A stretch of 64,000 bases of DNA from Candidatus Saccharimonadota bacterium (GCA_050486185.1 JBJHCT010000003.1:37500-101499), one strand, 5' to 3'; positions 1,819 through 53,831 are shown, numbered from the stretch's first letter. Program-made: numbers and translations. Notes: generated by a model from the sequence alone, not told the origin.

Positions 1819-2069
1819 CTAGGTATTATATCAGCCCAATAAAGATACATCAGAAAGATATTTAACCAAAAAGAAAAGACTTCCCGCTGGGTGGCTTAGA
1901 AACCACGGTGCCAAAAGTCTTTCATTTATAATATTCTCATACATAAGCACAAGGCGCAAGTAAGCAGCCTCTTTGGTGTGGTTAGTAACTACATGTAATT
2001 AACTACTTGGTAGTTCTCTCTAACAAACAGCTAATTCCTGGTAGAATAAACATAAAGGTAAAACTGCTT

Positions 2070-3386
2070 ATGTCCACTATCAAAGCCTCTAAATTCCAAC
2101 ACCCTGACTCTCCTGATCCTAATCTAGAGACTAATGCTGATGGTTCAATACATGCTAATAAACTTGACGTAGATGAGATAACAACTAGCTCATTAAGACA
2201 CCCTGATTCAATAAATCCAGGACTTTCTATGATGGGTAACGGTGATGTGCATATGAATGGTAATTTGGTGGTGAATAATACGGTTAGCTTTACAGAAATA
2301 GATACGGTTAAAACAGCCTCTATACAGAATCCAAACTCTCAATCAGCTAGCATATCGATAGGGTCTGATGGTGGTGTTGGCATCCTATCGAATATGAGTG
2401 CAACTGGTGATGTCGATATTTCAGGCAGACTATCGGCAGGGTATTTAGATGATGGTATCGCAACGACCCAGCTATATAATTTTTCCGGGACAATTCGCTT
2501 TACCACTTGTGGGAAGACTGGACCGATTGGACCAAGTCTCTCAGATGCGGTTAGTAGCTACTCATTAGAGCCTTTCGCTAGTGAATGGCTTGAGGTTGAT
2601 GGTAGGTTTGAGGTTGTGGGAGGGGTTCAATACTTTAAGATTCCTAAGACAGGCCAATATCAAATCAGGGCCGCTGGGTCTAGGAGCGGTGATTCTAACT
2701 GGGGAGGTTTGGGTATAGATATAACTTCTACGGCAGAGTTTCGTGCCGGTGAAATTATACGTATAGTAGTCGGACAAAAGGGCCAAGGGAATAGTGCAAC
2801 ATATGCTGGCGGTGGTGGAGCTTCAGCCCTAGCTGTTAGGAGGATGGACTTGTGGGTACCTATCTTAATTGCTGGTGGAGGAGCAGGACAGTCAAATAAT
2901 AGTCCAAACTCTTTTAACGCCAACAGGAATGCTTTTGCTCCAGACGTTAGAAGTGGTGACAACTTTGGTGGTAGAGGCAGCTATTACAGTACTAGCTACA
3001 GTACCTCTATAGGTCATAATTGGCCAGGCGGTGGAGGTGGTGGTTGGTCATCAGATGGTTATGACGGTAGGATTAATTACTTTGGCTCCGGTCAACCGAT
3101 AGGTGGTAGGGCTTTGAGTTCAGAATCTCCCATGGGCGGTCGGTATTTTATAGACCCAAACAACACTTATGATGGTGGGTTTGGCGGTGGCGGAGCCACT
3201 GGTGTCGGTGGTGGTGCTGCTGGCGGTGGCGGCGGTTGGTGGGGAGGGAACTCTTCTTATGCAGGTATTGGTGCTAGTTCTGATGATACTAGTCATTTGG
3301 GCGGTGGTAGCTATTCCAGAAACAGTACTTATACTGTCGAGGGGACCAACAACGATCAAGGTTTTGTAGAGATAACTTTAACTTAA
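2070..3386 (+). CDS. Gly-rich paralog family member 1: conserved N-module MSTIKASKFQHPDS…, Gly-rich core, C-terminal …GFVEITLT
   Basis: Long ORF. The ATG at 2070 is chosen because the protein from there aligns with the N-termini of the three downstream paralogs. RBS-like AAAGG sits 11 nt upstream. A QHPDS/RHPDS motif is repeated internally. No N-terminal hydrophobic signal peptide. Confidence 0.75.
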   Translation: MSTIKASKFQHPDSPDPNLETNADGSIHANKLDVDEITTSSLRHPDSINPGLSMMGNGDVHMNGNLVVNNTVSFTEIDTVKTASIQNPNSQSASISIGSDGGVGILSNMSATGDVDISGRLSAGYLDDGIATTQLYNFSGTIRFTTCGKTGPIGPSLSDAVSSYSLEPFASEWLEVDGRFEVVGGVQYFKIPKTGQYQIRAAGSRSGDSNWGGLGIDITSTAEFRAGEIIRIVVGQKGQGNSATYAGGGGASALAVRRMDLWVPILIAGGGAGQSNNSPNSFNANRNAFAPDVRSGDNFGGRGSYYSTSYSTSIGHNWPGGGGGGWSSDGYDGRINYFGSGQPIGGRALSSESPMGGRYFIDPNNTYDGGFGGGGATGVGGGAAGGGGGWWGGNSSYAGIGASSDDTSHLGGGSYSRNSTYTVEGTNNDQGFVEITLT

Positions 3387-3459
3387 ATTAAGAAAGTCTT
3401 TAGTCTTTTTGCTAAACTTAAACATAACTAACTTTTTAAGAAAAGCGACTATATAGCTA

Positions 3460-4908
3460 ATGTCCACTATCAAAGCCTCTAACCTCCAGCACCCTGACTC
3501 ACTAGATCCTAACCTAGAGACTAATGCGGACGGCTCGGTTCATGCTAATAAACTGGATGCCGATGAGTTAACTGCCGGTACTATTAATGCTAGTGGGTTG
3601 AATATTAATGAAGCCAACATTCAAGATTCAATCGATCAATCTATCTCACAGTCCAAGCTAATGACTGAGAACACCCAAACCCAAGACTACACCTTGCAAC
3701 TTAGTGATATAGGTAGAGTAGTAGTGATAGATAGTGAGACAGATAGAACTATCACTATACCTAACTCATCAGCAGTAGATTTTCCCATAGGTTCCGTAAT
3801 TTATCTATACAGACAAGGTGAAGGGAGAGTAGTTGTTACTGGTGCAGAGGGTGTGACGGTTAAGAACGATGGTAATCTTCCTAAAGAAGAAGATATCTAT
3901 GTCCGTAAACGAGCTACTAATGAGTGGGTAGTCTTTCCTTCTTTGTGGAAACCCGTTAACGCTTCAGGAGGTCAGTTCAAGACTGTTACAGTTTCAGACA
4001 CAGTCTATGGGGTTCATATGTTCACTGATATTGGTTCAGCGGAATTTCATATCTTAGATGAAGGTTCTGAAAGTAAACTCGATGTTTTGATTGTCGGTGG
4101 CGGCGGCGGCGGCGGAGGTTACGGTGGCGGCGGCGGTGGAGGTGCCGTGCTTCACTCTGTAGATAGACCAATAGAAAAAAATACTTACCAGATAGTGGTT
4201 GGAGCAGGTGGAGATGCTAGGCCGTGGGTTAATAGCGTGGCTGGCCCTGAAGCTGCGGAGCCTTTCGGCGGGGGTTCATCTAGTGCTTTTGGTTTGGCGG
4301 CTACCGGTGGTGGTGCTGGCGGTAGCTATAACGGTAGAGATGCTGGTCATGGGGCTAATGGTGGTGGTAGTGGGGCTTATGGTAGCGGTGACTTAGGTGG
4401 TACTAGTAACAAGTCATTTCCTGGAGTTGGTGTAGTCCCAGAAGGCGATGATTATACAACGGTCTACGCAGGTAATACTGGTGGTGACGCTAATGTTACC
4501 TCGCCTAACTTCCCTTTAGCCGGTGGAGCTGGTGCCGGAGAGGACGGGCAATCACAACCTAGTAGCTCTGGTAACGGCGGTAATGGTGGTAACGGAGTTA
4601 TGATTAATATTGAAGGTAACGACTACTACTGGGGTGGTGGAGGCGCTGGTGGCGTATATACAACTAACGGAACTGGTGGTAACGGCGGACTAGGTGGCGG
4701 TGGCGGAGGCGGTCAACTTGGATCTGGTGGCGGCTCAGCCCTAAATCCTGGCGGTGATGCTGGATCGCATCTATCTTCTGGCGGGGCCGGCGGCGCTAAT
4801 ACTGGTGGCGGAGGTGGCGGAGGTGGGTACAATAGTAACGGCTCAATTGGTTCACCAGGTGGTTCCGGTATTGTTATTATTCGTTATCCACTAGAAAAAC
4901 CATCGTAA
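3460..4908 (+). CDS. Gly-rich paralog family member 2: N-module MSTIKASNLQHPDS…, poly-Gly core, C-terminal GGSGIVIIRY
   Basis: 482 aa. The first ~45 aa are ~80% identical to members 1 and 4. Long GGGGGGGGYGGGGGG runs. A conserved C-terminal beta-strand-like motif. Confidence 0.8.
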   Translation: MSTIKASNLQHPDSLDPNLETNADGSVHANKLDADELTAGTINASGLNINEANIQDSIDQSISQSKLMTENTQTQDYTLQLSDIGRVVVIDSETDRTITIPNSSAVDFPIGSVIYLYRQGEGRVVVTGAEGVTVKNDGNLPKEEDIYVRKRATNEWVVFPSLWKPVNASGGQFKTVTVSDTVYGVHMFTDIGSAEFHILDEGSESKLDVLIVGGGGGGGGYGGGGGGGAVLHSVDRPIEKNTYQIVVGAGGDARPWVNSVAGPEAAEPFGGGSSSAFGLAATGGGAGGSYNGRDAGHGANGGGSGAYGSGDLGGTSNKSFPGVGVVPEGDDYTTVYAGNTGGDANVTSPNFPLAGGAGAGEDGQSQPSSSGNGGNGGNGVMINIEGNDYYWGGGGAGGVYTTNGTGGNGGLGGGGGGGQLGSGGGSALNPGGDAGSHLSSGGAGGANTGGGGGGGGYNSNGSIGSPGGSGIVIIRYPLEKPS

Positions 4909-4980
4909 CCTTAAGCTACTTACACATAATGAAACCTGCTACACTTTAGGTGTAAGTAAAGAGTCAAAATAGGTATATAA

Positions 4981-6396
4981 ATGTCCACCATCAAAGCCTC
5001 TAAATTCCAACATCCAGACTCAGAAGGCAAGAACATAGAACTAGACTCTAGTGGCAATGCTTCATTTAGTGGGGAGATTAAAGCCTCAAGTATTCGCCAT
5101 CCTAACTCTTCAAACAGCCAAATCACTATGAATATCGATGGCACAGTTAATGTTAGCGGTTTAAGTGTTAACGATGAGGATATTCAAGACACCATATCCC
5201 AAACCAAACTTTCTTCAGAAAAAGAACTTACTCCTGATTTAAACGATGAATACACCCTAGGGCTAGAAGATGCTGGGAAAGTACTGACTTTAGATGATGC
5301 TGATGAAAACAAAGTAGTTACTGTCAATATTCCTAATGATAGTCAAGCTGATTTTGAAGTAGGTTCAACCGTAAAGTTGTATCGCGATAACGAAGCCGGT
5401 ATTACCATCAAAGCTAATGAGAGCGTTAGTATCAAAAGCCCTCTTGCTCCTGGGCCATACTACTTTGTTAGAAAGTATGGTGAACCTCAACTTAGAAAAA
5501 GAGCTGCTAACCAGTGGGTTTTAACCGAAAACGGTCTACTAATCCAGTCCCTACTTGCTGTAGGTGGTAACGAAGTTTTTGAAGAGATTATTAATGGAGC
5601 AGTGTATCGTATCCACGTTTTTACTACCGTAGGCTCTTCACAGGCTTTTGAAGTAGAGCTTGGCGGCGGCGAAGTTGAGTATCTAGTAGTTGCTGGAGGC
5701 GGTGGTGGTGGAATGGTTAACACTGGATCTGTTGGATCCGCAGGGGGTGGAGCCGGCGGATATAGATGTAGCGTCAAAGGAGAATTGTCTGGAGGTAATA
5801 ATCAAGCAGAACCTCCTTTGGTAGTAGAAAAAGGATCTTACACAGTTACAGTGGGAGCAGGAGGAGTAAAAGGTGTAACTACAAATAATCCTGGTGGAGA
5901 CGGTGGTGATTCGACACTAGGATCAGTAGTTAGTTTAGGCGGCGGCGGAGGCGGAGGTACTGGTCACGGTAGAAATGGTGGCTCTGGCGGCGGCGGAGGT
6001 TACGGTGGCGGCTCAGCTGGCAGCGGCACATCCAGTCAAGGCTTTGACGGTGGGGGTGGATCTACAGAAGCCGTTGCTCCCGGATCTGCAGGCGGTGGTG
6101 GAGGTGCATCTGAACCTGGTATTAAACCTGCGACTGCTTCATCAGCGGGGGGTAATGGCGGTGATGGTATAGAGTCAAATATTACAGGATTACCTACCTA
6201 TCGTGCTGGCGGCGGTGGAGGTGGACAGAATAACTCTGCCTGGGGTTCGGGAGGTTTAGGTGGCGGAGCCGATGCTGGTAATGGTAATAGCGGTGAGAAT
6301 AATACTGGCGGTGGCGGAGGTGGAACTCGCTCTGGCTTAGCTAACCCAGGTCAAGGCGGCTCCGGCATAGTCATAGTTCGTTACCGCATCGGTTAA
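4981..6396 (+). CDS. Gly-rich paralog family member 3
   Basis: 471 aa. N-module MSTIKASKFQHPDS plus a second RHPNS repeat. Shares a ~100-aa middle module with member 4 (EYTLxLEDAGKVLTLDD…VVTVNIPND…FEVGS…LYR…PLAPGP). Gly-rich core. C-terminal GGSGIVIVRYRIG. Confidence 0.8.
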   Translation: MSTIKASKFQHPDSEGKNIELDSSGNASFSGEIKASSIRHPNSSNSQITMNIDGTVNVSGLSVNDEDIQDTISQTKLSSEKELTPDLNDEYTLGLEDAGKVLTLDDADENKVVTVNIPNDSQADFEVGSTVKLYRDNEAGITIKANESVSIKSPLAPGPYYFVRKYGEPQLRKRAANQWVLTENGLLIQSLLAVGGNEVFEEIINGAVYRIHVFTTVGSSQAFEVELGGGEVEYLVVAGGGGGGMVNTGSVGSAGGGAGGYRCSVKGELSGGNNQAEPPLVVEKGSYTVTVGAGGVKGVTTNNPGGDGGDSTLGSVVSLGGGGGGGTGHGRNGGSGGGGGYGGGSAGSGTSSQGFDGGGGSTEAVAPGSAGGGGGASEPGIKPATASSAGGNGGDGIESNITGLPTYRAGGGGGGQNNSAWGSGGLGGGADAGNGNSGENNTGGGGGGTRSGLANPGQGGSGIVIVRYRIG

Positions 6397-6451
6397 ACTT
6401 CTTAATAAATAACTAAACCCTGCTAAAATAAACATAAAGGTAAAACCATTT

Positions 6452-7057
6452 ATGTCTACTATTAAAACCTCTAACATCCAACACCCTGACTCACCAGACT
6501 CTAATTTAGAGACCAATGCGGACGGCTCGGTCCATGCTAATAAGTTAGATGCTGATGAATTAACTACTGGGCAAATCAATGCCGATACTATTACAACCGG
6601 CACCATTAATGCTACTGGGATAAATATAGATGATACTAATATCCAAGAAACTATCTCTCAAACTAAACTATCTCTTGAAAAGAATATAGTCCCAAGTGAG
6701 AGCAATGAATACACCCTAGAGCTTGAAGATGCCGGTAAAGTCCTAACTCTTGATGATGAGGATGAAGAAAAAGTAGTGACTGTCAATATTCCTAATGATA
6801 ATGAAGTGAATTTTGAAGTAGGCTCTAATGTTAGTTTGTATCGTGGCGACAATGCCAACATCGAAGTATCTGCTAATAACGGAGTCGATATCAAAACCCC
6901 TCTAGCTCCAGGTCCTAGTAACGCCTCTGGTGGAAATCCAGGTAACGGCACCAATGGCTTAGGCGGTGGAGGCGGTGGATCAAATGGTTATAACGGTAAT
7001 TTAGATGGTGGAGCTGGTGGCTCTGGAATTGTCGTCGTTCGTTATCGCATCGGCTAG
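6452..7057 (+). CDS. Gly-rich paralog family member 4 (short form, 201 aa)
   Basis: Same N-module, the middle module shared with member 3, a short Gly-rich core, and C-terminal GGSGIVVVRYRIG. Its upstream 26 nt are nearly identical to those upstream of member 1. Confidence 0.8.
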   Translation: MSTIKTSNIQHPDSPDSNLETNADGSVHANKLDADELTTGQINADTITTGTINATGINIDDTNIQETISQTKLSLEKNIVPSESNEYTLELEDAGKVLTLDDEDEEKVVTVNIPNDNEVNFEVGSNVSLYRGDNANIEVSANNGVDIKTPLAPGPSNASGGNPGNGTNGLGGGGGGSNGYNGNLDGGAGGSGIVVVRYRIG

Positions 7058-18382: not shown

Positions 18383-20749
18383 ATGAGACGTCAAAGCTTT
18401 AACCACTACCACCAAGGCAAAACTAGATTCTTGCAGTATGTCTGGATATTGTCGCTAGTATTATCACCTCTATCAAATCCTCAATCAGTAGATGCTGATG
18501 ACCCTATAGATATATCAAGCTGCTTAGAGCTACAAGATGTCGGTAGCGATCCTTCGGATCTTCCCCTAGATGGTTATTATCGGTTGCTCGATCATATAGA
18601 TTGTACTTTTGAGACCTCTGATCCTGATGGCACTCTATATAACGGGGGTGAGGGTTTTGATCCGATCGGAAGCGAACTCGAGCCTTTTATCGGCATATTA
18701 GACGCTCAAGGTTTTTCTATAACCGGTCTACATATTAATAGAGGCGAAGTAAGGGTCGGCTTATTCAGTAGTATAGATGCTCCGGCCGAGATATTAAATC
18801 TTGATTTAATAGATATCGATATCGCCAATTCACTAGACTATACGGCCGGGCTAGTAGGCTATATGCAGGCAGGCAGTATTAATAACGTTAATATTAGCGG
18901 TATAAGCAATATATCTGGAGGCAATAAGGTCGGTGGTTTGGTGGGATTTGCTAGCAGTGACGTCAGTATTACTAACTCCTCTGTGACTGTTGATGTTGAT
19001 GGTGGTAGTGATGTCGGCGGGCTGATTGGCGAAAACGCCGGCATAGTCTCGCAGTCTGTCTCGGTCGGTAGTGTTAGTGGCGTTAGTAATATTGGTGGTT
19101 TAGCAGGCTTTAGTAGTGGCGATATTAATGAGTCACAGAGCCAAAGTAGTGCAATAGGAAGCGGTAATAACATCGGTGGGTTGGTGGGAGAAAATCAAGG
19201 CAATATCACTGATTCCTATGCTGTAAGCAACATTTCATCGATGGGTGATAATGCTGGTGGTTTAGTGGGGTATAACAACGGTAATGTCGAAGGGTCTCAT
19301 GCTACGGGTGAGGTAGAGGGGATTAATCATGTCGGTGGTTTAGCTGGGTACAATAGTGCTACTATCACTAGTTCGTATGCTGAGGGTGACGTTAGCGCTA
19401 GTGACTCTTATGCTGGCGGGTTGGTAGGGTATAACGATAACAATATAACACTGACTCATGCTAGCGGCAGAGTCACTATTGATGAAGATTCTGGATTTGG
19501 AGCTGGTGGACTAGCCGGCTATAACGAGGGAGAGATATATAGATCCTACTCTGAAGGAGATATATATTTTGAACACACCAACAACGTGTGGGATATCGGC
19601 GGTTTGGTAGGAGAGAATCATGGTCTTATCTCACAATCTTTCTCTACCAGTAATGTGGTTGATATTAATGGCGCACCCATAGCGGACACTAATTTTGTTG
19701 GTGGGTTGGTAGGCACACTAAATGGAGGGTCGATAACAAACACTTATGCTAGAGGAGCTACATATAGTACTCTTTTGGGAGGATCTTTAGTCGGTGATGT
19801 CCTTGATGGTGAAGTAAGTAACTCGTATGGTACAGGAGAGGTTTCAGGAGATGATTTAGGTGGCCTAATAGGAGATAACTGGAATGATGCTCCAGTAACC
19901 AACTCTTTTTGGGACATGGATAGTACCGGTATCGATGAGGCTAACAATACCAGTGGCTCAGGTACCGGCAAAACCACCGAAGAGATGAAGGATGTACGCA
20001 CCTATACGGATGAAGAGTTCTCTAGTGGTTTAGATCTGCCGGTTTGGGACTTTGTCGGTAATCCAAACGATGATGTTGGCCTAGATGATATCTGGAGCAT
20101 AGATTCAGAAGGTGTTATTAATGATGGCTATCCTTTCTTTGATTGGTGGTGGCAACTACAACAAGAGGGCGATGGGGATGATAACGGTAATGGCGATGAC
20201 GGTGAAGATAACGGCGATGATGAGATAGAAACTAACTTAGATAACGATAAGAACGGCGACGGTATACCAGATGATCAGCAAGATAACGTTGCTTATATCA
20301 TCAGCCCGATTACCGGTGAATTAGTAGTCTTAGAGGTAGATGAGCAGTGCTCAATTACGGCTCTTTTCATAGTTAGTGAAGATGATAACGATGTGAGCGA
20401 TATAGGTTACGATTATCCCCAAGGCTTTATAACTTTTACGATTAACTGTGTGACCCCAGGGTATACTTCTGATATCATTTTATACTATTACGGTATTGAA
20501 ACTAGTGATTTAGATAAGTATCTTTTGCGTAAACACAATCCCAACACCGGTGCATACTTCAGTATTGAGGGTGTGAGTATAGATACTACTAATATATATA
20601 GCGAGATGGTTTTAAGAGTTAATTACCAGGCTACCGATGGTGGTGAGCTTGATATAGATGGTGAGACTAACGGTATCATCACTGACCCTGTCGGCTTAGG
20701 TGTAGAGGTAGTCGGCGTACCCGATACCGGTTTGGGTGGCGGTAGATAG
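18383..20749 (+). CDS. secreted GLUG-repeat surface protein with an acidic Asp/Gly-rich linker and C-terminal …VPDTGLGGGR
   Basis: 788 aa with an N-terminal signal-like hydrophobic segment. More than 10 tandem ~28-aa repeats of the form (V/I/A)GGL(V/I/A)G.N.G.I…S(Y/F)(A/S).G.V.G match the GLUG motif family. Confidence 0.75.
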   Translation: MRRQSFNHYHQGKTRFLQYVWILSLVLSPLSNPQSVDADDPIDISSCLELQDVGSDPSDLPLDGYYRLLDHIDCTFETSDPDGTLYNGGEGFDPIGSELEPFIGILDAQGFSITGLHINRGEVRVGLFSSIDAPAEILNLDLIDIDIANSLDYTAGLVGYMQAGSINNVNISGISNISGGNKVGGLVGFASSDVSITNSSVTVDVDGGSDVGGLIGENAGIVSQSVSVGSVSGVSNIGGLAGFSSGDINESQSQSSAIGSGNNIGGLVGENQGNITDSYAVSNISSMGDNAGGLVGYNNGNVEGSHATGEVEGINHVGGLAGYNSATITSSYAEGDVSASDSYAGGLVGYNDNNITLTHASGRVTIDEDSGFGAGGLAGYNEGEIYRSYSEGDIYFEHTNNVWDIGGLVGENHGLISQSFSTSNVVDINGAPIADTNFVGGLVGTLNGGSITNTYARGATYSTLLGGSLVGDVLDGEVSNSYGTGEVSGDDLGGLIGDNWNDAPVTNSFWDMDSTGIDEANNTSGSGTGKTTEEMKDVRTYTDEEFSSGLDLPVWDFVGNPNDDVGLDDIWSIDSEGVINDGYPFFDWWWQLQQEGDGDDNGNGDDGEDNGDDEIETNLDNDKNGDGIPDDQQDNVAYIISPITGELVVLEVDEQCSITALFIVSEDDNDVSDIGYDYPQGFITFTINCVTPGYTSDIILYYYGIETSDLDKYLLRKHNPNTGAYFSIEGVSIDTTNIYSEMVLRVNYQATDGGELDIDGETNGIITDPVGLGVEVVGVPDTGLGGGR

Positions 20750-20821
20750 TAGGGAGAAGATAAAAATATCTATTAAAAACTAAAGAGTATCAGGGTGTTA
20801 AAATTATCTCTGCTACTGAAT

Positions 20822-21850
20822 TTATGGATTTAACCCCAAGACGGCTTGCTTGATCTTGTTTAAGTTATCCTGAGCTATTGGCCTAACCTTCTCGGCACCT
20901 ACCCTTAGCACCTCATCTAGTTGTTCGGAGCTATTAATTAGCTGGTGGTATTTTTCCGACATTGGCCCGAATCTATCTACTATTACTTCTAGCAATCTTT
21001 CCTTGGCCTCTTTCCAGCCGATATTGCCTGACTCTAGGTCACTCTTTAGCGCTTGGGACTGCTCAGCATCTGCTAGGGTTGTAAATATTTGGTATATCAG
21101 GCTGTCTTCTGCTACCAACTGCTCACCGGCTGATGATGAGTCGGTGACTATCTTGCGAACTGCCTCCCACCACCCATCTTTATCGGTAAATAGGGGGATG
21201 ATATTGTCATAACTCTTGCTCATCTTGCGTCCATCTACACCTACCACTTCTTTAGCCTCATCTTTGAGTAGGTGTTCTGGCAGGGTGATTATCTCATCTC
21301 CGATCGCATGGTTGAATCTCTGAGCGATATCACGAGCAATCTCTACATGCTGGGCCTGGTCTTTACCGACCGGTATTACATCGGCGTTAAACAGCAAGAT
21401 ATCACTAGCCATCAGTAAGGGGTAGGTATATAGGCCCATATTTATACCTTCATCTGGGTCTTTGTTGTTTTGGGTATTTAAATCTACCGCGGCTTTGTAG
21501 GCATGAGCTTTATTCATCCAGCCCTTAGGAGTGAAGTTAGTTAGTATGGTAGCTAACTCAAAAACTTCTGGGACATCCGATTGGCGGTATAGGTTGAACT
21601 TGTCGGTATCTAGTCCAGCTGCTATCCAGGTAGCTGCTACTAAGTAAGTCTGTTTTTTGATTAGTTCACCATCATAGGTAGTGTTGAGAGCATGATAGTC
21701 AGCTATAAATAGGTTGCCTTGGTCGTATTGATTTACTAGCTCAAGACTAGGCTCTATAGCGCCTAGGTAGTTGCCGATATGTGGAGTGCCGGTCGGCTTG
21801 ATGCCGGTTAGTAGAACTTGCTTAGATGTATCTGTTTTACTCATGTTCAA
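20822..21850 (-). CDS. trpS: tryptophan--tRNA ligase
   Basis: 342 aa with class I HIGH (TGTPHIGNY) and KMSKS motifs. Confidence 0.9.
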   Translation of the reverse strand: MNMSKTDTSKQVLLTGIKPTGTPHIGNYLGAIEPSLELVNQYDQGNLFIADYHALNTTYDGELIKKQTYLVAATWIAAGLDTDKFNLYRQSDVPEVFELATILTNFTPKGWMNKAHAYKAAVDLNTQNNKDPDEGINMGLYTYPLLMASDILLFNADVIPVGKDQAQHVEIARDIAQRFNHAIGDEIITLPEHLLKDEAKEVVGVDGRKMSKSYDNIIPLFTDKDGWWEAVRKIVTDSSSAGEQLVAEDSLIYQIFTTLADAEQSQALKSDLESGNIGWKEAKERLLEVIVDRFGPMSEKYHQLINSSEQLDEVLRVGAEKVRPIAQDNLNKIKQAVLGLNP

Positions 21851-21858
21851 TCTATATT

Positions 21859-21966
21859 ATGCCACTAGATTTAGATATAGAGAAATCTGCGCCTTATAAA
21901 GGTTTATTAGGACTAGGCGCGCAAATGGTCAACGCACCTGATACCGGGCTTGACGGCGGTAGGTAA
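21859..21966 (+). other. 35-codon stub ORF whose last ~20 codons are homologous to the C-terminus of the GLUG protein (…GLGAQMVNAPDTGLDGGR*)
   Basis: The 39 nt at 21928-21966 are ~75% identical to 20711-20749. Likely a gene remnant or mini-ORF flanking trpS. Confidence 0.4.
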
Positions 21967-22093
21967 TACTAACTATCTAACTGTAGATAATCTACTTGAT
22001 AGACTTTGCCATCCTCTATAAGGTAATAGTGAAACCTGCTGCATAGAAGGTATACTAGTTATATAACCCCCCAAAAAAGGTAATATTTGAGTA

Positions 22094-23905
22094 ATGCAAG
22101 ATCAATATCAATCATCCATAGACAACCAAATCAAGCAATCTCTAGTTAAGCTAGATAGTAATGTCAAAGTAGGCACTAATTTAGCGTCTGAATCCTCCTT
22201 GCTAGATGAATTAGCTACTAATATAGCTGAAGCCACTAGTTTGGATAAGCTTGAGATTAAGCAACTACTATCGCCACCACCAGAGCGAGATGATTTAACT
22301 CTAGACTTTGATTATGGGTTAGCTACCTTTACTTTAGCTAAAGACACCAAAAAATCCCCAGTAGATGTAGCTAAAAGCCTGGCTAAGAGCCTATCAGGAA
22401 GCGACCTCATAGCTGATGTCCAGGCTGTAGGTCCATATCTCAACGTCGCTATTAAAGACCAAGGAGTTATTGAATCTTTACGCCAAATAGTTGATGCAGG
22501 GGAAGAAGAGCAAGCCTCTAAGGGTACAGTCGTCATAGATTTTTCTTCTCCTAATGTAGCTAAACCTTTCGGAGTAAACCACCTGCGTTCTACTGTGATC
22601 GGCGAAGCTATAGCTAGGTTGTTAGAGTCTCAAGGCTTTGTAGTGATTAGAGATAATCATTTAGGTGATTGGGGTACTCAGTTTGGTAATATCTTAGCTG
22701 CCTATGACATCTACAACCCAGAAAAAGATTTCAGTGATTTAAATATTGATGAGATCAATGAACTATACATTCGTTACTCCCAAGAGATGAAAACAGATGA
22801 GGATCTAGTAGAGAAAGGCAGAGAGTATTTCTCTCGTCTCAGCCAGGGTGATGAGGAGTTGCTAACTAGGTGGCAACACTGCGTTGATTTAAGCCAGCAG
22901 GATTTTGATAGAGTCTATCAGCGTCTAGGTGTTGAGTTTGACATCCAAATCGGTGAAGCCTACTTTGCCGAAACCACCGATGAGTTATTAGATGAGCTGG
23001 TTAAAGATAGTGGCTCAAAATCGGTAGTAGTAGATGAAGACGGCAGCATTCATATAGACGGCAAGCATCCAGTAATGCTTCGTACAGCTGGTGGTTATTC
23101 GGTCTATGCAGCTAGAGATCTAAGCACTATTAAATTTAGAAGTCAGACATATAACCCTAATGCGATTATCTATGTAGTCGGTCATGAGCAATCTACTTCT
23201 TTTGAGGCGGTTTTTGATGTTGCTAAGCAGCTGGGGTTGAACAAGACTGATCGGGGCGAGGCCGACTTAGAGCATGTCGGCTTCGGCCTATTAGTTGGAA
23301 CAGATGGCAAGAAGCTCTCAACTAGGAAAGGTACTAGCGGTAAGCTAGAAGATCTGATTAACCAGCTAGAAGAGAGGGCTTTAGCTGAAATTAAATCCAG
23401 GAATCCCGATATGAATGAATCAGAAGCTCAAGACAACGCCAAAGTCTTAAGTGTAGCGGCACTAGTTTGGCACGATCTTAGGACTGATAGGAACACTAAT
23501 GTCCGTTTTGATCCAGGTGCTATGTTAGCTTTAGGTTCAGGTAGCGTAGTTGACGTGCTTTATTCGTATGTACGTAGTCAGAGGATTTTAGCCAATCTCG
23601 GTGAGGTTGATTTATCGAACGTAGCTTTAGAGTTCAGCGCTGGGATAGAGCATAGTTTAGGTGTTAAGTTGGCTGAACTGCCGGAAATAGTAGCTAAAGC
23701 AGCTCAAATGAAGTCACCACACATATTAGTCGGCTATTTGCATGAGCTATCGAAACTACATGGTAGTTTCTACGAAGCTAGCCCGGTTATAGGTGAGGAA
23801 GATCAGAGCAAGCAGGCACTAAGAGTCTTACTCCATCAAGCCTACATCAAGGTGGTTGCTCAGGGGCTAGATCTACTTAATATCAAACCACCCTCTAGGC
23901 TTTAG
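22094..23905 (+). CDS. argS: arginine--tRNA ligase
   Basis: 603 aa. The N-terminal Arg-tRNA-binding domain, the class I catalytic core (…SSPNVAKPFGVNHLRS…) and the DALYS anticodon-binding domain are arranged as in ArgS. Confidence 0.85.
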   Translation: MQDQYQSSIDNQIKQSLVKLDSNVKVGTNLASESSLLDELATNIAEATSLDKLEIKQLLSPPPERDDLTLDFDYGLATFTLAKDTKKSPVDVAKSLAKSLSGSDLIADVQAVGPYLNVAIKDQGVIESLRQIVDAGEEEQASKGTVVIDFSSPNVAKPFGVNHLRSTVIGEAIARLLESQGFVVIRDNHLGDWGTQFGNILAAYDIYNPEKDFSDLNIDEINELYIRYSQEMKTDEDLVEKGREYFSRLSQGDEELLTRWQHCVDLSQQDFDRVYQRLGVEFDIQIGEAYFAETTDELLDELVKDSGSKSVVVDEDGSIHIDGKHPVMLRTAGGYSVYAARDLSTIKFRSQTYNPNAIIYVVGHEQSTSFEAVFDVAKQLGLNKTDRGEADLEHVGFGLLVGTDGKKLSTRKGTSGKLEDLINQLEERALAEIKSRNPDMNESEAQDNAKVLSVAALVWHDLRTDRNTNVRFDPGAMLALGSGSVVDVLYSYVRSQRILANLGEVDLSNVALEFSAGIEHSLGVKLAELPEIVAKAAQMKSPHILVGYLHELSKLHGSFYEASPVIGEEDQSKQALRVLLHQAYIKVVAQGLDLLNIKPPSRL

Positions 23906-28808: not shown

Positions 28809-31349
28809 GTGACAAAAAGGTGGGGATTAGGGATAACTTGGAAGCGTTTAGTCTCAAGCCTAGCTATTTTAGCTATATTAATATCTAGTTTATTCTTGGT
28901 AGTACCAACTGCCGAAGCTGATACTTGTGCAGACGTATTAGCTATATTCGCTAGAGGCTCTGGTCAAGACCACATCGACAGTAGCGGTAGTGATATTGAT
29001 CATACCGCCACCTTTTTTGATGAGCTGGAGAGTCGCAACGATGGTTCGCTAACCATAGAGACTGTAGACCTAGACTACCCTGCTCCAGGTATAGAAAGTT
29101 TTCTTAATGCTAAATTCCCATTTTTTCCAGGGGGATACCGCAAGAGCGTATCTAGCGGGGTTGATCAGCTCGAACAAGAGCTATTAGACCGTAGTCACTG
29201 TGAGGATCAAAAGATAGTTTTGGGCGGGTTTTCTCAAGGAGCTCACGTGATTGGTGATGCTTTGGAGGTAGTGGCTAGTTATGGTGGCATAGAATCCAGG
29301 GTGGTTGGTATCGGTATGTTTGGTGACCCTAAGTTTAATCCTGATTCCTATGCAGCTCATGGCACCTATCAAGCCCCGCAGCATAATCGCCTCCTAAATT
29401 CAGGAGGTATTTTAGGTTCTCGTGATGAATTTCCAGGGTTTTTTGAAGACAGATTACAGAGTTGGTGTAGGTATATGGACGGTATTTGTGAGAACAGTTT
29501 AACTGATGCAGTAATGCATATGCCGGCTCATACAGAGAGTTATCAGAACCGAGAAATACCCACCTTTATCAACCAAGTAGCCGATTCTATTGCGGGTTTG
29601 AGTTATGAGCCTACGTATGAATATAGTCCTGATTTATCCGAAAACTTAGATGTGATGTTTGTGGCTGAAAACATAGAGAGTAATTTACACCAAAGCCGAC
29701 TTAGAAGTATGGCCGTATATCATCAGCTAGATGATATACTGCACGGTCTTGATGGCCTTAGCGAAAGTACTAGGTTTGCTTATCTAGGCTATGGTGGGGG
29801 CTCCTCAGGTTTAAGTGATCCTGACTTGTGGTTACAACACGGACCCTTTACAGATGATATAGATGAATTTATCAATGATATTAGGGATAATACGAGGGAT
29901 TGGAGAAGCAACAGAGCCCACCCTCTTAATGCTTTAGTTAAAGCTTTTGAGTATGATTGGCGTGATGATGCTCGTAAAATCGTCTTCTTGATTACCGATA
30001 GAGGTCATCCAGAAGAGGTTGAAGCCGATACGGGTTATACTCTAGAGTCGGTTATCAATACAGCTCAGGCTTCTGAAATATCTATTTATCCAATATCGTC
30101 GCGTTTACTCAACCCAGACCTTTCTGAGTTAGATGCAGAGAGAGTAGCTAGGTATGAAAGGTTAGCCGATGAAACTCAGGGTATACGTTTCCCAGGCAAC
30201 TTAGGGTCTAGTGGTACAACTTCATTACTGCATGCTGTCGTTAATACTATCCCAATATTTCCTGATATATATAACGGTAGGCCGGGTATAGTTGACGAAC
30301 CGGGTGAAGAGTTTATTTTTGACCTTAGTGAATGGAGAAACCAAAATTATTACGATAAAGATATTAGATATAGGTGGCGATTTAGCAGTAACGACACTAC
30401 CTTCTTAGGTCCAACTGAGATAGTCTATAGTCCGACGGTCTATCATCAGTATGATGAGCCTTTTGAAGGTTTTGTTAGGGCTCAAGTCCAGGGAGAGCAT
30501 TGGTTAGGAGGATTCTCAAGAACTCCTAATATATTAACTAACCTAATTATTCCAGTAGATATAGATCCAGATAGAGGATATGTGCCAAATATTAATACCC
30601 CTAGAGACTTTGAAGTTATCGTGGAAGACGGTAGCTTAAATGCTAGCTGGTCGCCGCCAGATAACGCCTCCCCAGCTAGGTTAAGGGGGTATAATCTATA
30701 TACTGCTGACGGCGAAGAGCTGGCTACGCTAGACAGCAAGCTTAATGGTGTTGATATAACTAACATTACAGATGATCATGACCCTAATATTTTACTTAGC
30801 GCTATTAGCGCTCAGGGTGAGAGTCAAAAGATCAGCCCCAAAGTGACCGTTATAACGGATGGCGAACAAGTAGATAATAATCCTGATGAAAATACAGGTG
30901 AGAATGTGGATAATGAAGAATCGGACAATGATCAGTACAGCGATGATTTAGTAGCAGATATCGGTAGTGATGGCGATGAGCCAGAACCTATAGACCAAAC
31001 TAATGAGTCAGAAAGAAATCAGGATCAAGAAGATGGGTTGATTTCAGGAAGTGGTGACAGTGATTTTAGAGATGAACAGCAGGAGCTAGGTATATTCAAT
31101 AATGATGGCTCAAATCTATTAGGCATGTTTTTTGAAGATAGGTTTAATATCATCAAACTTGCGTCTATATCTATGCCTACAGCTGATATCAACAACTCCA
31201 GAGCCAATGTCTTAGGCGTTGGTGATGAAAACAGGCGTTACATTTGGCCCTATCTAGTATCTATATTCTTTTTCTTGAGCGCTGGATACTTAATCTATAG
31301 AAGGAAGTCTATAAATTTTAAAAAACATATAAGCAAAGTTAATCGATAG
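28809..31349 (+). CDS. large membrane-anchored surface protein: signal peptide, cutinase-like alpha/beta-hydrolase, central region, FN3-like module, acidic linker, C-terminal TM anchor
   Basis: 846 aa. N-terminal …CADVLAIFARGSGQD…GGFSQGAHVIGDAL matches the cutinase family (G-Y/F-SQG). …ASWSPPDNASPARLRGYNLY… is FN3-like. A DE-rich tract follows. The C-terminus is YIWPYLVSIFFFLSAGYLIY + RRKS…. Confidence 0.6.
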   Translation: MTKRWGLGITWKRLVSSLAILAILISSLFLVVPTAEADTCADVLAIFARGSGQDHIDSSGSDIDHTATFFDELESRNDGSLTIETVDLDYPAPGIESFLNAKFPFFPGGYRKSVSSGVDQLEQELLDRSHCEDQKIVLGGFSQGAHVIGDALEVVASYGGIESRVVGIGMFGDPKFNPDSYAAHGTYQAPQHNRLLNSGGILGSRDEFPGFFEDRLQSWCRYMDGICENSLTDAVMHMPAHTESYQNREIPTFINQVADSIAGLSYEPTYEYSPDLSENLDVMFVAENIESNLHQSRLRSMAVYHQLDDILHGLDGLSESTRFAYLGYGGGSSGLSDPDLWLQHGPFTDDIDEFINDIRDNTRDWRSNRAHPLNALVKAFEYDWRDDARKIVFLITDRGHPEEVEADTGYTLESVINTAQASEISIYPISSRLLNPDLSELDAERVARYERLADETQGIRFPGNLGSSGTTSLLHAVVNTIPIFPDIYNGRPGIVDEPGEEFIFDLSEWRNQNYYDKDIRYRWRFSSNDTTFLGPTEIVYSPTVYHQYDEPFEGFVRAQVQGEHWLGGFSRTPNILTNLIIPVDIDPDRGYVPNINTPRDFEVIVEDGSLNASWSPPDNASPARLRGYNLYTADGEELATLDSKLNGVDITNITDDHDPNILLSAISAQGESQKISPKVTVITDGEQVDNNPDENTGENVDNEESDNDQYSDDLVADIGSDGDEPEPIDQTNESERNQDQEDGLISGSGDSDFRDEQQELGIFNNDGSNLLGMFFEDRFNIIKLASISMPTADINNSRANVLGVGDENRRYIWPYLVSIFFFLSAGYLIYRRKSINFKKHISKVNR

Positions 31350-31441: not shown

Positions 31442-32410
31442 ATGCCCAGACTACCAATTCCAGGACAAGACTCAGGTACATGGGGAGACATCCTTAATGA
31501 ATTCCTGAATGTAGCCCACAACTCAGACGGTAGTCTAAGAAACATCAACCTAGAATTAATCTCTAATATCGATACCACTAACCTCCAAGACGGCGATGTT
31601 TTAGTTTATGACCAAGCAACTACCACTTGGCTAACCTCTACCCCAGCTAATAATGCCAGTGATGTTAGCTATGACGATACCAATACTACTCACGTCTCAG
31701 GAAACAACGTTCAATCAGCTCTAGAGTCAGTTGATAGCACCCTAGGTACTCACACCACTACCCTTGAATCAACCGGTTCACTTACCGATATAGTTACCTT
31801 TACTTCGTCAGGTACTTTTACCAAGGCCAACTATCCAGGTCTAAAACGCATTAGAGTTAGGCTAGTTGGAGGCGGTGGAGGCGGGGCAGGGGTTGCAGGT
31901 GCTGGATCTGGTAATGCTAGAGCTGGCGGCGGAGGGGGAGGAGGTGGTTATGCTGAGAGTTTAATTACTGAATCACAATTAGCAGCTTTGGAAACTGTAA
32001 CGGTTGGCGGTAGTGGGATACGTGGGTCTAATGGTAATAATGCTGGCGGCGGAGGGGGAACTAGCTCATTTGGCTCTTTAGTTGTCGCAACAGGTGGTGG
32101 AGGTGGTGGAGTAGCTATCGGAACCGGTGATGGTGGTGGTGCGGGTGCAGGAACTGCTGGAGATATAATTATTGGTGGCGGTAGCGGTGGCGGCGCCGGG
32201 GTGGCTAGAGCTAGTAGCGGAGCTGGTGGATCATCTGCTTTAGGCGGCGGCGGCCGAGGTATGTTTGCTTCAGACCCTACTGCCCGTAACGGAATCAACG
32301 CTAGCGGCTATGGCGGAGGTGGTAGCGGAGCATATGGCTTCAGTACTGGTTATGATCTAATCGGTGGACACGGTAGAGCCGGTATCGTCATCATCGAAAT
32401 ATATCGATAA
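31442..32410 (+). CDS. Gly-rich protein, divergent member of the 2070-7057 family (same C-terminal strand motif …GRAGIVIIEIYR)
   Basis: 322 aa. Poly-Gly/Ala core with VGGGGGGAGVAGAG… runs. The C-terminal GIVII-IYR compares with GIVIIRY and GIVIVRYRIG in the array. The N-terminus differs (MPRLPIPGQDSGTWGDILNEF…). Confidence 0.7.
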   Translation: MPRLPIPGQDSGTWGDILNEFLNVAHNSDGSLRNINLELISNIDTTNLQDGDVLVYDQATTTWLTSTPANNASDVSYDDTNTTHVSGNNVQSALESVDSTLGTHTTTLESTGSLTDIVTFTSSGTFTKANYPGLKRIRVRLVGGGGGGAGVAGAGSGNARAGGGGGGGGYAESLITESQLAALETVTVGGSGIRGSNGNNAGGGGGTSSFGSLVVATGGGGGGVAIGTGDGGGAGAGTAGDIIIGGGSGGGAGVARASSGAGGSSALGGGGRGMFASDPTARNGINASGYGGGGSGAYGFSTGYDLIGGHGRAGIVIIEIYR

Positions 32411-47172: not shown

Positions 47173-47850
47173 TTAGCTAACTAACTCGGCCGAAACTATA
47201 ACTCTCTCATCATAGCTACGAGACTCTTGATCGAATAAACCACCACAGGTAATTAAATTAACCTGGTGTGATACTTGTGGGTGTTGAGAGAATAATACAC
47301 TGGCTGCTTCACTCTCATGCATTGAAACTACTTCCATAACTCGATAGGTGAGTATGCGCCCATCACCCATCTCGATCTCAAATTCATCACCACTATTAAT
47401 ATATTCTAGGTGCATAAATATGCCATTCCTAGAAGTTGCCCCATCTACGTGGCCATCGATAATGCTTAAACCCATCTCACCAGGTCGCACACTATTTATG
47501 AACCAACCAGCTTTATGAACATTATCAGGTACGGCTATCTGTTGATTTTGATCAATACCAACGTTTTGAATATATCCACCACTATCGATACTGGGCAATC
47601 TAATATATTTAGGATCATCTGAAGACCCTTGCCACTGGTAGTTATCATCTGGCTCTTCTTCGCTAGGTTGATCGGTAGAGAAAGTTATCGGTTCAGTCGC
47701 TATCATCTCATCAACTTCGTTATCATGAGAAGCTATTTGGTTAGAAAACCAGATTGCAGAGAATGTAATAGTTATTAACAACAAAACAGATAGGGCTAGG
47801 ATTGCCTGCGTACCTGGTAGTCTATCTTTTCTAATTAAGGCTTTAATCAT
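47173..47850 (-). CDS. sortase (class E/F-like transpeptidase)
   Basis: 225 aa with an N-terminal TM anchor, catalytic His (…IIDGHVD…) and the TLITCGG Cys motif. Confidence 0.7.
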   Translation of the reverse strand: MIKALIRKDRLPGTQAILALSVLLLITITFSAIWFSNQIASHDNEVDEMIATEPITFSTDQPSEEEPDDNYQWQGSSDDPKYIRLPSIDSGGYIQNVGIDQNQQIAVPDNVHKAGWFINSVRPGEMGLSIIDGHVDGATSRNGIFMHLEYINSGDEFEIEMGDGRILTYRVMEVVSMHESEAASVLFSQHPQVSHQVNLITCGGLFDQESRSYDERVIVSAELVS

Positions 47851-52573: not shown

Positions 52574-53431
52574 TTAGTCTTTGTCTTTGTCTTTATCTTT
52601 GTCTTTGTCTTTATAGCTACCTTTCCATAGGCGCAAGATTCCAGCTAGAATCAGCGCTAGTAAACTCAAGCCGGTTAAAGTAGCGATGACGGGTAGTAGT
52701 GCACCGGTGATAATGGGGGCTACTTCGTTAATGATAGAATCAACCCTACCACTACCAGCCTCAGAAGCCATACCGCTTAATATTCCCAAAACTGCTACTA
52801 AAGGCAGTAAACTCATCAATACCACAAAACTAGGAGATACTAATCTCCCGAAGCGATGGCTGAAATAGGTGAGGCTACTTAGCAGCAGCAGGCTTACTAG
52901 GCTTAAAATTATGAGGGTACCCCTAGATTTTAAGTGCGAGTCATAGCTAACTAGCGAGATAAAACTAGCATCATTAATAAAGCTATCGATCTCGTCTTGA
53001 TCATCGGTTATTTGAGCGGCTAACTCCTCAGGACCATTATAGTAAAGCGGTTCGGTGATTTGGCGAAATATTGCTAGCCTCAACTCTCTAGGAGATAACT
53101 CTTGGGCCTCAGCCTTGGTAATGCTGATAAACTCCATGCCTTCGATTGGATGTATAACATCTTCATCCTTAAACTCATCTAAAATCTCGTTAATATCACC
53201 TTCATAATCTAACCCTTCAGGACTGAAGGCTGCAGCTATTGCTAGTGTCGATATATCGATAGCATTTTCAGGGCTACTCAGCCGCCAAAAACTAAAGACT
53301 AGCAGTGTAGCTAGTACTAATAGGATCGATAGTATGCCGCTGATCCATTTAAGATCGACATGCCAATACGGTCTGATTTTAGGAGTTTTATCCTGGCTCT
53401 TTGGGCGTTTAAACATAAGCTGATTATACAC
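52574..53431 (-). CDS. membrane protein with a C-terminal (KD)n tail
   Basis: 285 aa with multiple TM helices. It ends …GSYKDKDKDKDKDKD, encoded by the hexanucleotide repeat at 52576-52615. Confidence 0.55.
   Translation of the reverse strand: MYNQLMFKRPKSQDKTPKIRPYWHVDLKWISGILSILLVLATLLVFSFWRLSSPENAIDISTLAIAAAFSPEGLDYEGDINEILDEFKDEDVIHPIEGMEFISITKAEAQELSPRELRLAIFRQITEPLYYNGPEELAAQITDDQDEIDSFINDASFISLVSYDSHLKSRGTLIILSLVSLLLLSSLTYFSHRFGRLVSPSFVVLMSLLPLVAVLGILSGMASEAGSGRVDSIINEVAPIITGALLPVIATLTGLSLLALILAGILRLWKGSYKDKDKDKDKDKD
52576..52615. repeat. (GTCTTT/ATCTTT)n hexanucleotide microsatellite at the 3' end of the 52574-53431 gene
   Basis: Sequence gtctttgtctttgtctttatctttgtctttgtctttat read directly. 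Confidence 0.8.
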
Positions 53432-53483: not shown

Positions 53484-53831
53484 ATGGTTAAACACTTTAT
53501 CTTTAAATACGCCTATCATCTCCTATTTATACTATCAATATCTGCCATCCTAGCCGGTGTCTGGGTTTATCACTACATTGAGGGTATGAGCTGGATCGAT
53601 GCTTATTATTTTAGTGTTATTACTTTAGCTACTGTCGGTTACGGTGATATAACCCCTCAGACTAACTTTGGCAAAATATTTACTACTATATATGTACTAG
53701 TCGGTATAGCCATAATCGGTGGATTTATAGGTACTATAATTAGCCGCGGCAGAGATAGACTAGCCCAGAAGGTTCACTATCACCGCAGTCAGGACTATTA
53801 TAGCGAGGACAAGGAAGAGCCAAGACTTTAG
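53484..53831 (+). CDS. minimal 2-TM potassium channel (TVGYGD selectivity filter)
   Basis: 115 aa. M1 helix, pore helix with …ITLATVGYGDITP…, M2 helix, and a short cytoplasmic tail. Confidence 0.7.
   Translation: MVKHFIFKYAYHLLFILSISAILAGVWVYHYIEGMSWIDAYYFSVITLATVGYGDITPQTNFGKIFTTIYVLVGIAIIGGFIGTIISRGRDRLAQKVHYHRSQDYYSEDKEEPRL

Follow-up and report, generated by a model that had tools for sequence, protein, structure and literature searches.

A window of 64,000 nucleotides from a Candidatus Saccharimonadota bacterium (GCA_050486185.1 JBJHCT010000003.1:37500-101499, with positions counted from its first letter) was analyzed for a gene that encodes a large exported surface protein with GLUG repeats, which ends in a short peptide resembling a sortase recognition motif. 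A similar end is present in a 35-codon open reading frame (ORF), here called the stub, on the far side of the tryptophanyl-tRNA synthetase gene trpS, and a sortase is encoded elsewhere in the window. The parts of the surface protein, together with the sortase, are located as follows (aa, amino acids).

18383..20749, + strand: gene of the 788-aa exported surface protein (ORF; Pfam Glug, E=5.4e-27; choice_anch_U match; 1546 relatives of the last 154 aa)
18383..18496, + strand: probable Sec signal peptide, aa 1-38, MRRQSFNHYHQGKTR / FLQYVWILSLVLSPL / SNPQSVDA|DD (translation inspected by eye)
18845..19873, + strand: 13 GLUG repeats with a GGL[VAI]G core and a ~27-aa period, aa 155-497 (regular-expression count; Pfam PF07581)
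20165..20287, + strand: acidic Asp/Gly/Asn-rich linker, aa 595-635, EGDGDDNGNGDDGEDNGDDE...DDQQDN (translation)
20285..20707, + strand: C-terminal beta-sandwich of the choice-of-anchor U family, aa 635-775 (NCBIfam NF041766; AlphaFold2)
20708..20749, + strand: flexible tail VVGVPDTGLGGGR and stop, with VPDTG at 20717-20731; proposed sortase motif without a hydrophobic segment (AlphaFold2 disorder, family conservation)
47173..47850, - strand: membrane-anchored class F-like sortase of 225 aa, proposed as the tail-processing enzyme (Pfam Sortase, E=1.6e-16)

A preliminary description of this DNA had reported the 788-aa protein with more than 10 repeats, its acidic linker, trpS, and the stub, and all of these were recovered: the ORFs were in place, the Pfam Glug family was matched, and 13 repeats were counted. 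The protein is composed, in order, of a signal peptide, the GLUG repeats, the acidic linker, a choice-of-anchor U beta-sandwich, and a short xPxTG tail. By inspection of the translation, its N-terminus includes K/R in the n-region, a 15-aa hydrophobic core, and a VDA|DD site. The GLUG repeats scored 92.7 bits, above the gathering threshold of 20.5 (Pfam PF07581), and the choice-of-anchor U model (NF041766), whose match at aa 675-774 immediately precedes the tail, reached 44.1 bits (cut-off 32). The protein ends in ...GLGVEVVGVPDTGLGGGR (in a longer excerpt, ...DPVGLGVEVVGVPDTGLGGGR) followed by TAG TAG, and the LPXTG-like pentapeptide VPDTG occupies aa 779-783. An AlphaFold2 model of the last 154 aa (mean pLDDT 92, pTM 0.84) showed a beta-sandwich with IITDPVGLGVE as its last strand, while the tail VVGVPDTGLGGGR was without secondary structure and its pLDDT dropped from 62 to 42. 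The motif is hence predicted to be on an exposed flexible extension, as expected of a recognition peptide. A Foldseek search of the C-terminal domain against the PDB returned nothing at E<=0.001 (TM below 0.35), so no significant solved relative was identified there, and an exact database look-up of the 788-aa protein returned no record.

Textbook sortase anchoring depends on a tripartite signal composed of a pentapeptide, a hydrophobic helix, and a charged tail. The preliminary description had noted that the motif is without the hydrophobic and charged tail of LPXTG substrates, which was confirmed. VPDTG is followed by LGGGR and then TAG TAG, and when the 72 nt preceding the trpS stop were read by eye in all frames, no hydrophobic segment was seen. 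The only charge after the pentapeptide is the single terminal Arg, far shorter than a classical tail. Curated anchor models did not match the protein at E<=0.01 (Pfam Gram_pos_anchor) or E<=1 (NCBIfam LPXTG anchor). A transmembrane (TM) segment hidden by recoding or a frameshift was considered and rejected, as the stops are TAG TAG and TAA and not TGA, the same 72 nt contain no hydrophobic stretch, and elsewhere a sortase gene begins 4-30 nt past the substrate stop or overlaps it.

Relatives of the C-terminal module were collected through an exhaustive HMMER search of 1.84 billion cluster representatives with the last 154 aa as query. A word-indexed homologue search with the C-terminal 174 aa had found no matches, and the exhaustive search was needed instead. 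It identified 1546 relatives at E<=1e-3 and 901 at E<=1e-10. The C-termini were read for the best 150 of the 1546 relatives, and the tail counts given here refer to these. The alignment extended to the last residue of the protein in most of the 150. A short tail, where the protein ends 0-14 residues (mode 5) past x[PA]xTG, was found in 107 of them, and these 107 clusters are mutually less than 50% identical. Thr and Gly were invariant among the short tails, while Pro was present in 104/107 and Asn occupied the x position in 93/107. The spacing from DPxG to the pentapeptide was exactly 7 residues in 105/107. The residue after TG was L, F, I, or V in 100/107 and the next two were often Gly-Gly; a K/R was found within 88/107 tails, and 56 have it as the last residue. 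The family motif can be written as [AVST]-P-x-T-G-[LFIV]-(G-G)-x(0-3)-[KR]-COOH. For example, the tail of the relative P0017, ...VGVPNTGLGGGR, is the same as that of the window protein save for Asn in place of Asp. Within this part of the family, the short tail predominates and is no accident of the window genome. The earlier suggestion that PDTGL-GGR and its stop form a conserved motif used by several genes is strongly supported at the family level (107/150), while only one functional carrier gene was found in the window.

In contrast to the short tails, ~35 of the 150 relatives carry a hydrophobic stretch of ~20 residues and a basic tail after the motif, which corresponds to a classical sortase signal. 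The motif in these TM-tailed relatives is mostly LAxTG, with a looser xTG or no TG in 8/35, and seven have xP[ND]TG, i.e., the short-tail motif plus a TM segment. The short-tail motif aligns with the LAxTG/xPNTG of the TM-bearing homologues at the same position. Additionally, two intermediates were identified, one at locus L018 (...APNTGLGG-AVMQHSDNSRNYLVLVTILLVAALGTRRLQRNKSSL) and the other in the first gene of locus L023 (...VPNTGLGG-LQPAASHRSAGSQLWPSAVTMLLGLAWIIFRHH), where PNTGLGG is combined with a TM segment and an RR/RHH-type end. The short tail is therefore homologous to a sorting signal that lost its membrane segment. Its motif is the counterpart of the sorting-signal pentapeptide, with the hydrophobic helix lost and a short, usually basic end left behind.

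The N-terminal passengers varied among members and included GLUG, a possible beta-propeller, fn3/DUF8202, Peptidase_M26_N, and none recognised; the domain and tail therefore form a module common to different surface proteins. Substrate genes occurred in tandem in several loci (two in L005, three in L025, two in L026, and two in L023). The L023 pair consists of one TM-tailed and one short-tailed gene, both upstream of a single sortase. The GC content of the family loci ranged from 34 to 64%. Pairs of a short-tail gene and a sortase were observed on contigs of 37% to 64% GC (62-64% for L023 and L024; 42% for the window), and the system may extend beyond Saccharibacteria. A cluster-member look-up of 10 short-tail proteins returned 'GLUG motif-containing protein [bacterium]' as the sole name.

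When JGI metagenome contigs were scanned for the pattern G[VA]P[ND]TGLGG, 138 matching stretches were identified, and 22 of them were confirmed as choice-of-anchor U relatives. The remaining 116 may include cases of the same tail on unrelated passenger or domain families. At another locus (L030, 1075-1182, + strand), just the last ~34 residues (...DGNISDPVGLGLTVLGAPNTGLGGRH and stop) match the family, with apparently unrelated sequence preceding them in the same frame. Either another case of a 3' relic or a frameshifted gene may be present here.

The presence of a sortase at 47173-47850, also noted in the preliminary description, was supported by a score of 60.6 against the 26.6 required by Pfam Sortase. 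Among the five NCBIfam sortase classes it scored best, although under the curated cut-off, with class_F_sortase (NF033748; 103.7 bits, E=7e-30). The protein has an N-terminal hydrophobic anchor and the motifs GHVDG, LITCGG, and ERVIV around its His, Cys, and Arg; these catalytic residues (H90, C158, and R172) are invariant columns across 53 aligned sequences. At least 140 homologous clusters were found, and the NCBI record of a relative of 46% identity bears the name 'class F sortase [Candidatus Saccharimonadales bacterium]'.

The neighborhood of short-tail genes was examined in two samples. In a locus identified through P0017 (L003), the short-tail gene overlaps by 14 nt a gene for a 222-aa sortase, which shares 50% identity with the window sortase over 210 residues. 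The substrate-centred sample included the 22 family loci confirmed in the metagenome scan, where sortases were sought by tblastn with two queries. A sortase orthologue starts within a few tens of bases downstream of the short-tail gene in 8/22 of these loci (L009, L010, L012, L013, L014, L021, L024, and L029), and these adjoining orthologues are 41-61% identical to the window sortase. In L022 the orthologue is convergent to the short-tail gene, and in L023 it is located after the second substrate gene. Summed over L003 and the 22 metagenome loci, the short-tail gene is directly upstream of a sortase in 9/23, with a sortase nearby in two more. Apart from five loci with enough downstream sequence, considered below, the others end too early downstream to judge its presence.

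The sortase-centred sample was composed of four homologues of the window sortase on long contigs, and it is free of the bias introduced by the substrate pattern. In 3/4 of these loci (L031, L033, and L034), a gene with the same domain and a short tail ends 14-30 nt upstream of the sortase; the tails are ...AAPNTGLGGLSAR (with a PNTGLGGLSAR end), ...GAPNTGLGGRF, and ...GSPNTGLNPVY. Hence, the linkage between short-tail genes and this sortase clade is tight and reciprocal, and the overlapping or abutting gene pairs suggest co-expression at the same site. The doubt cast on a sortase link in the preliminary description is not shared here, as the gene neighborhoods in other genomes support such a link.

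Comparison with known systems helped to place the window protein. Similar to the classical LPXTG signal (PF00746/TIGR01167; sortase A-type), its C-terminal pentapeptide has the invariant Thr-Gly and Pro at position 2, it follows the last folded domain of a Sec-exported protein in a genome that encodes a sortase, and homologues of the domain bear the full tripartite signal at the same position. In contrast to that signal, the tail has no hydrophobic helix and extends only 0-14 residues past TG (5 here), usually as [LFIV]-G-G plus K/R; its position 1 is A/V/S/T instead of L, x is nearly always Asn (Asp here), and the window tail is matched by no Pfam or NCBIfam anchor model. Curated thresholds place the protein in the GLUG and choice-of-anchor U families and outside the classical LPXTG-anchor family, but it most likely functions as a sortase substrate does. 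The name of the choice-of-anchor U family (NF041766) implies a domain that precedes a C-terminal sorting signal, as it does here, except that the 'anchor' of the window protein is a 5-residue remainder and not an LPXTG or other TM-containing signal.

Dedicated sortase/substrate pairs are known from the class GN 'marine' sortase (TIGR03784), which has an adjacent single target, and from pilus operons with class C sortases. The loci described here resemble them in that the sortase gene adjoins co-oriented presumed substrates, often in tandem (L005, L023, and L025). They differ in that the substrates of the known pairs have a TM helix and a charged tail, that the enzyme is closest to class F, and that the pair is separated in the window. 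Class F sortases (NF033748) are the best-scoring class and share the conserved His/Cys/Arg and the N-terminal membrane anchor, while the window enzyme falls under the curated cut-off and has no sequence-detectable solved structure. Ordinary LPXTG substrates are reported for the class F enzyme characterised so far, that of Cutibacterium acnes. As a model of how the tail might function, sortagging tags (LPETG-G/His6) provide the closest analogy: they are likewise short, unstructured C-terminal xPxTG peptides with few residues past Gly and no membrane anchor, and they suffice in vitro for sortase cleavage and transpeptidation. Such tags are artificial and used at high concentrations of enzyme and substrate, and a short tag of this type is not known as a natural design.

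The second copy of the tail is located between two aminoacyl-tRNA synthetase genes.

20822..21850, - strand: trpS, tryptophanyl-tRNA synthetase; bystander that separates the intact gene from the stub (Pfam tRNA-synt_1b, E=1.2e-51)
21859..21966, + strand: stub, a 35-codon ORF (ATG 21859, TAA 21966), whose last 18 codons (21910-21963) are homologous to the family tail
22094..23905, + strand: argS, arginyl-tRNA synthetase (Pfam tRNA-synt_1d, DALR_1, Arg_tRNA_synt_N), which bounds the spacer holding the stub

The trpS gene is convergent to the GLUG gene, and the divergent spacer between trpS and argS, which holds the stub, is 243 nt in length. The open frame of the stub begins already at 21826, which corresponds to 46 codons, and the stub ends in ...GLGAQMVNAPDTGLDGGR (in a longer excerpt, ...GLLGLGAQMVNAPDTGLDGGR). 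It is identical to the C-terminus of the GLUG protein at 12/18 aa, with the stop codon in the same register. At the nucleotide level, 28/39 positions were identical over the last 39 nt (72%, where the similarity had been reported as ~75%) and 38/63 (60%) over the last 21 codons. After the stub, the closest resemblance to the GLUG tail was 4/18 among the 1835 stop-terminated six-frame ORF ends in the window, and 8/18, in a Gly-rich run, at any of ~128,000 positions. The match is far beyond chance. An HMM of the family C-terminus, built without window sequences, also matched the stub (E=0.0012 among 5301 six-frame segments); this match is confined to the last 17 aa, and the invariant NG.I.DP residues are lost upstream. 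In an independent Logan assembly (L008), a segment of 1451 nt spanning both copies is 100% identical, and an assembly artefact can therefore be dismissed. The stub was not called as a gene in that assembly.

Asp at the x position (PDTG) is rare, with ~4 occurrences among the 150 representatives, compared with Asn in 93/107 short tails. It is present in both window copies (20717-20731 and 21934-21948). The shared Asp may fit a lineage-specific preference of the local sortase, or gene conversion between the ends of paralogues. A third 'PDTG' at 53564 (- strand) is antisense inside a K+ channel gene and was set aside as chance.

The closest available relative is represented by the locus L006 (GCA_040876925.1; the same in L007) from a Candidatus Saccharimonadales genome, where argS is 65% and trpS 63% identical to the window genes. 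The window itself belongs to a MAG of a Saccharimonadales (Patescibacteria/CPR) bacterium, for whose argS an exact database match exists. Relatives of trpS in GTDB genomes reached at best 53% (uncultured Saccharibacteria, L001), without synteny or a family member nearby. L006 is collinear with the window to the right of argS, while its trpS-argS interval contains ~4.5 kb that is absent from the window. Within this additional DNA, a sortase gene (3526-3879, - strand) is cut to its C-terminal 117 aa, which are 70% identical to the window enzyme. A 5'-truncated and frameshifted copy of the C-terminal domain is likewise located there (4686-5088, + strand); over aa 657-787 of the window protein its identity is 65-83%, and its end reads ...GLGVEVVLAPSTGLGGGVN (also given as ...LAPSTGLGGGVN) and a stop. 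This remnant is the sole family member seen nearby. The arrangement suggests that a family gene, in L006 along with a sortase, has been decaying in the trpS-argS interval, enzyme and substrate together, and the window probably retains just the last 20-35 codons of the decayed gene. One of the two alternatives in the preliminary description placed remnants of a duplicated GLUG-type gene on both sides of trpS. In agreement, the stub represents what is left of the 3' end of a family gene; its neighbor across trpS, however, is an intact gene instead of a remnant, and the stub is no recent copy of that neighbor's end. The contrary outcome it had named, a motif unique to the two sites with the stub absent in relatives, was not observed, since the motif is widespread and L006 holds a longer remnant in the same interval.

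Taken together, we consider it fairly probable that the GLUG protein carries a sortase-processed tail without a membrane anchor and that the stub is the 3' relic of a diverged paralogue. The 788-aa protein would be exported by Sec, and the membrane-anchored class F-like sortase (47173-47850) would bind its exposed tail. Cleavage would occur between Thr782 and Gly783 with the release of GLGGGR, and the new C-terminal Thr would be transferred to an amine nucleophile, most plausibly a cell-wall precursor; the substrate would have to stay near the enzyme without a membrane anchor of its own. The chemistry is plausible because sortases readily process soluble proteins that bear short LPETG tags in vitro. 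The remaining part of the paralogue would have been deleted during rearrangement of the trpS-argS interval. More generally, we give a slightly better than even chance to the view that a large clade of surface proteins uses a natural anchor-free signal, [AVST]PxTG-[LFIV]GG-x-[KR]-COOH, and that a dedicated class F-like sortase, in most cases encoded directly downstream, processes this signal. The clade includes at least 107 clusters at 50% identity, with many from Saccharibacteria and probably other Patescibacteria.

Several points weigh against this interpretation. Cleavage of the tail is proposed from homology, the structural model, and gene linkage. In work by Schneewind and colleagues on staphylococcal protein A, deletion of the hydrophobic domain and charged tail reportedly abolished anchoring and led to secretion, and a signal without a TM segment should therefore not act by the classical retention mechanism. 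The window sortase is outside class F by the curated cut-off (103.7 vs 166 bits), and phmmer found no sequence-detectable solved relative of it among PDB sequences at E<=0.01. It is located 26 kb from the GLUG gene, and the operon linkage of other genomes is absent here. Additionally, tblastn found no sortase near the short-tail gene in the five loci with at least 2 kb of downstream DNA (L016, L017, L018, L025, and L026). For the stub, the ATG-to-stop frame, the co-terminal stop, and the rare Asp at x are kept and allow for a residual function, and the remnant in L006 may be an orthologue of either the stub or the intact gene. The requirement for a hydrophobic segment and charged tail in classical work, the unlinked genes in the window, and the loci without a sortase within 2-4 kb would also fit a vestigial tail, where short-tail members are merely secreted or non-covalently held at the surface and xPxTG is kept for a structural or other reason. 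Such a vestige is considered unlikely: T and G are invariant and P nearly so over 107 clusters less than 50% identical, the motif is in a predicted disordered segment outside the fold, the linkage to one sortase clade is reciprocal with junctions that overlap or span 4-30 nt, and the substrate remnant and the sortase decay jointly in L006.

Three other explanations were considered for the stub. It could be a functional small gene, whose 35-aa peptide with a sortase motif serves as a decoy, regulator, or free substrate, so that PDTGLxGGR would be used by two live genes. The intact frame from ATG to TAA with its stop in register, the conservation being best in the tail residues (12/18 identical; E=0.0012 to the family HMM), and the x-position Asp in common with the neighbor would agree with this. 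However, the product has no signal peptide or hydrophobic segment and therefore could not reach an extracytoplasmic sortase. No promoter-like site was found upstream on the + strand (a weak one is present only downstream, at 22029-22056, + strand), and no Shine-Dalgarno-like sequence was seen by eye before the ATG. Furthermore, the gene is uncalled in L008, the invariant residues of the family are lost upstream of the last 17 aa, L006 has a long frameshifted remnant in the interval and no small ORF, and an open frame of 46 codons is not improbable by chance in DNA of 42% GC. A live small gene is thus very improbable. Direct repeats at the DNA level, arising either from trpS having inserted at the 3' terminus of the GLUG gene (with target duplication, or through an integrating element that supplied a replacement 3' end) or from recent segmental duplication, are also quite improbable. 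Two co-oriented homologous segments do bracket trpS, the stub starts 8 nt from the trpS start, and the different arrangement of trpS and the family remnant in L006 indicates that the region has been rearranged. The similarity is nevertheless protein-like: identities at codon positions 1, 2, and 3 were 20, 19, and 12 of 32 (13, 14, and 8 in the last 18 codons, by hand count), from which it follows that both ends diverged mostly as coding sequence under peptide selection, with synonymous sites near saturation. The 60% identity over 63 nt falls to a background of 35% over the 72 nt past the stop codons. The stub is about as distant from the family members of L006 and L003 (49% and 48% nucleotide identity) as from the neighboring GLUG gene (53%), and no integrase, tRNA gene, or inverted repeats were found nearby. 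The near-saturated third positions, the end of homology at the stop, and the similar distances argue against a recent duplication or a target duplication by trpS insertion and favor an older paralogue relic. A tRNA or att-site remnant was rejected, as ARAGORN found just tRNA-Pro (15524) and tRNA-Gln (38163) in the window. Finally, because leader RNAs are common for aminoacyl-tRNA synthetase genes and one copy falls within the spacer with the argS/trpS promoters, a nucleic-acid element was considered, i.e., a regulatory RNA such as an argS T-box leader, a terminator, or the repeat pair of a diversity-generating retroelement (DGR). This is effectively refuted: the best Rfam match of the spacer was an unrelated family at E=2 and all matches were far below their gathering thresholds, no terminator-like hairpin was found, the differences favor third codon positions, and hundreds of proteins share the peptide end via different codons. 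A DGR template/variable pair was rejected because the mismatches are not adenine-specific (A at 9/25 in the stub and at 3 in the GLUG copy); a reverse transcriptase was not searched for. The stub is therefore read as a pseudogene fragment, probably what remains of the 3' end of a separate and older paralogue that had already diverged, and not as a second functional user of the motif.

If the proposed processing holds, membrane retention of the substrate would not be universally required for sortase-dependent anchoring, and the hydrophobic retention segment, deemed obligatory in sorting signals, would not be needed by these ultrasmall bacteria, possibly owing to translational or spatial coupling with the sortase or to an envelope of different architecture. 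The motif would then make it simple to list, from sequence, which surface proteins Saccharibacteria attach covalently; such proteins are candidates for the factors that bind these epibionts to their hosts. A naturally evolved sortase/short-tag pair could also become an orthogonal protein-ligation tool. The stub itself would be a minor case of gene decay and rearrangement beside housekeeping genes in a reduced genome. Within the literature collection searched, no paper was found that joins 'PNTG' with sortase, or that addresses this tail or any sortase sorting signal in CPR/Patescibacteria. More than half of CPR genomes encode a sortase family whose targets were left unnamed (Meheust et al. 2019, PMC6744442), and the tail would define a substrate motif for this family. 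The donor-strand-exchange pili of a 2026 CPR pilus preprint (10.64898/2026.03.03.709456) are different from the system described here.

Other genes of the window encode additional surface or membrane proteins. Four tandem paralogues at 2007-7057 (+ strand) have the common N-terminus MSTIKAS[NK][LF]QHPDS. Three of them, as well as a fifth gene at 31442-32410 (+ strand), match Pfam Gly_rich_2 (PF21722) and include ends of the form ...GGSGIV(I/V)(I/V)RY..., while the first paralogue (2007-3386) shares the N-terminus and has no Pfam match. These paralogues are a variable glycine-rich surface or tail-fibre-like family. A 285-aa membrane protein at 52574-53431 (- strand), without a Pfam family, has a (KD)5 repeat at its end (...WKGSYKDKDKDKDKDKD). 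An 846-aa protein at 28809-31349 (+ strand) contains a cutinase domain; fn3 matched it only weakly, at 18.8 bits under a cut-off of 25. Its C-terminus has a hydrophobic helix and a basic tail (...YIWPYLVSIFFFLSAGYLIYRRKSINFKK...) and no xPxTG, and this surface enzyme thus appears, from its sequence, to be anchored otherwise than the GLUG protein. Its orthologue in L006 is 52% identical.

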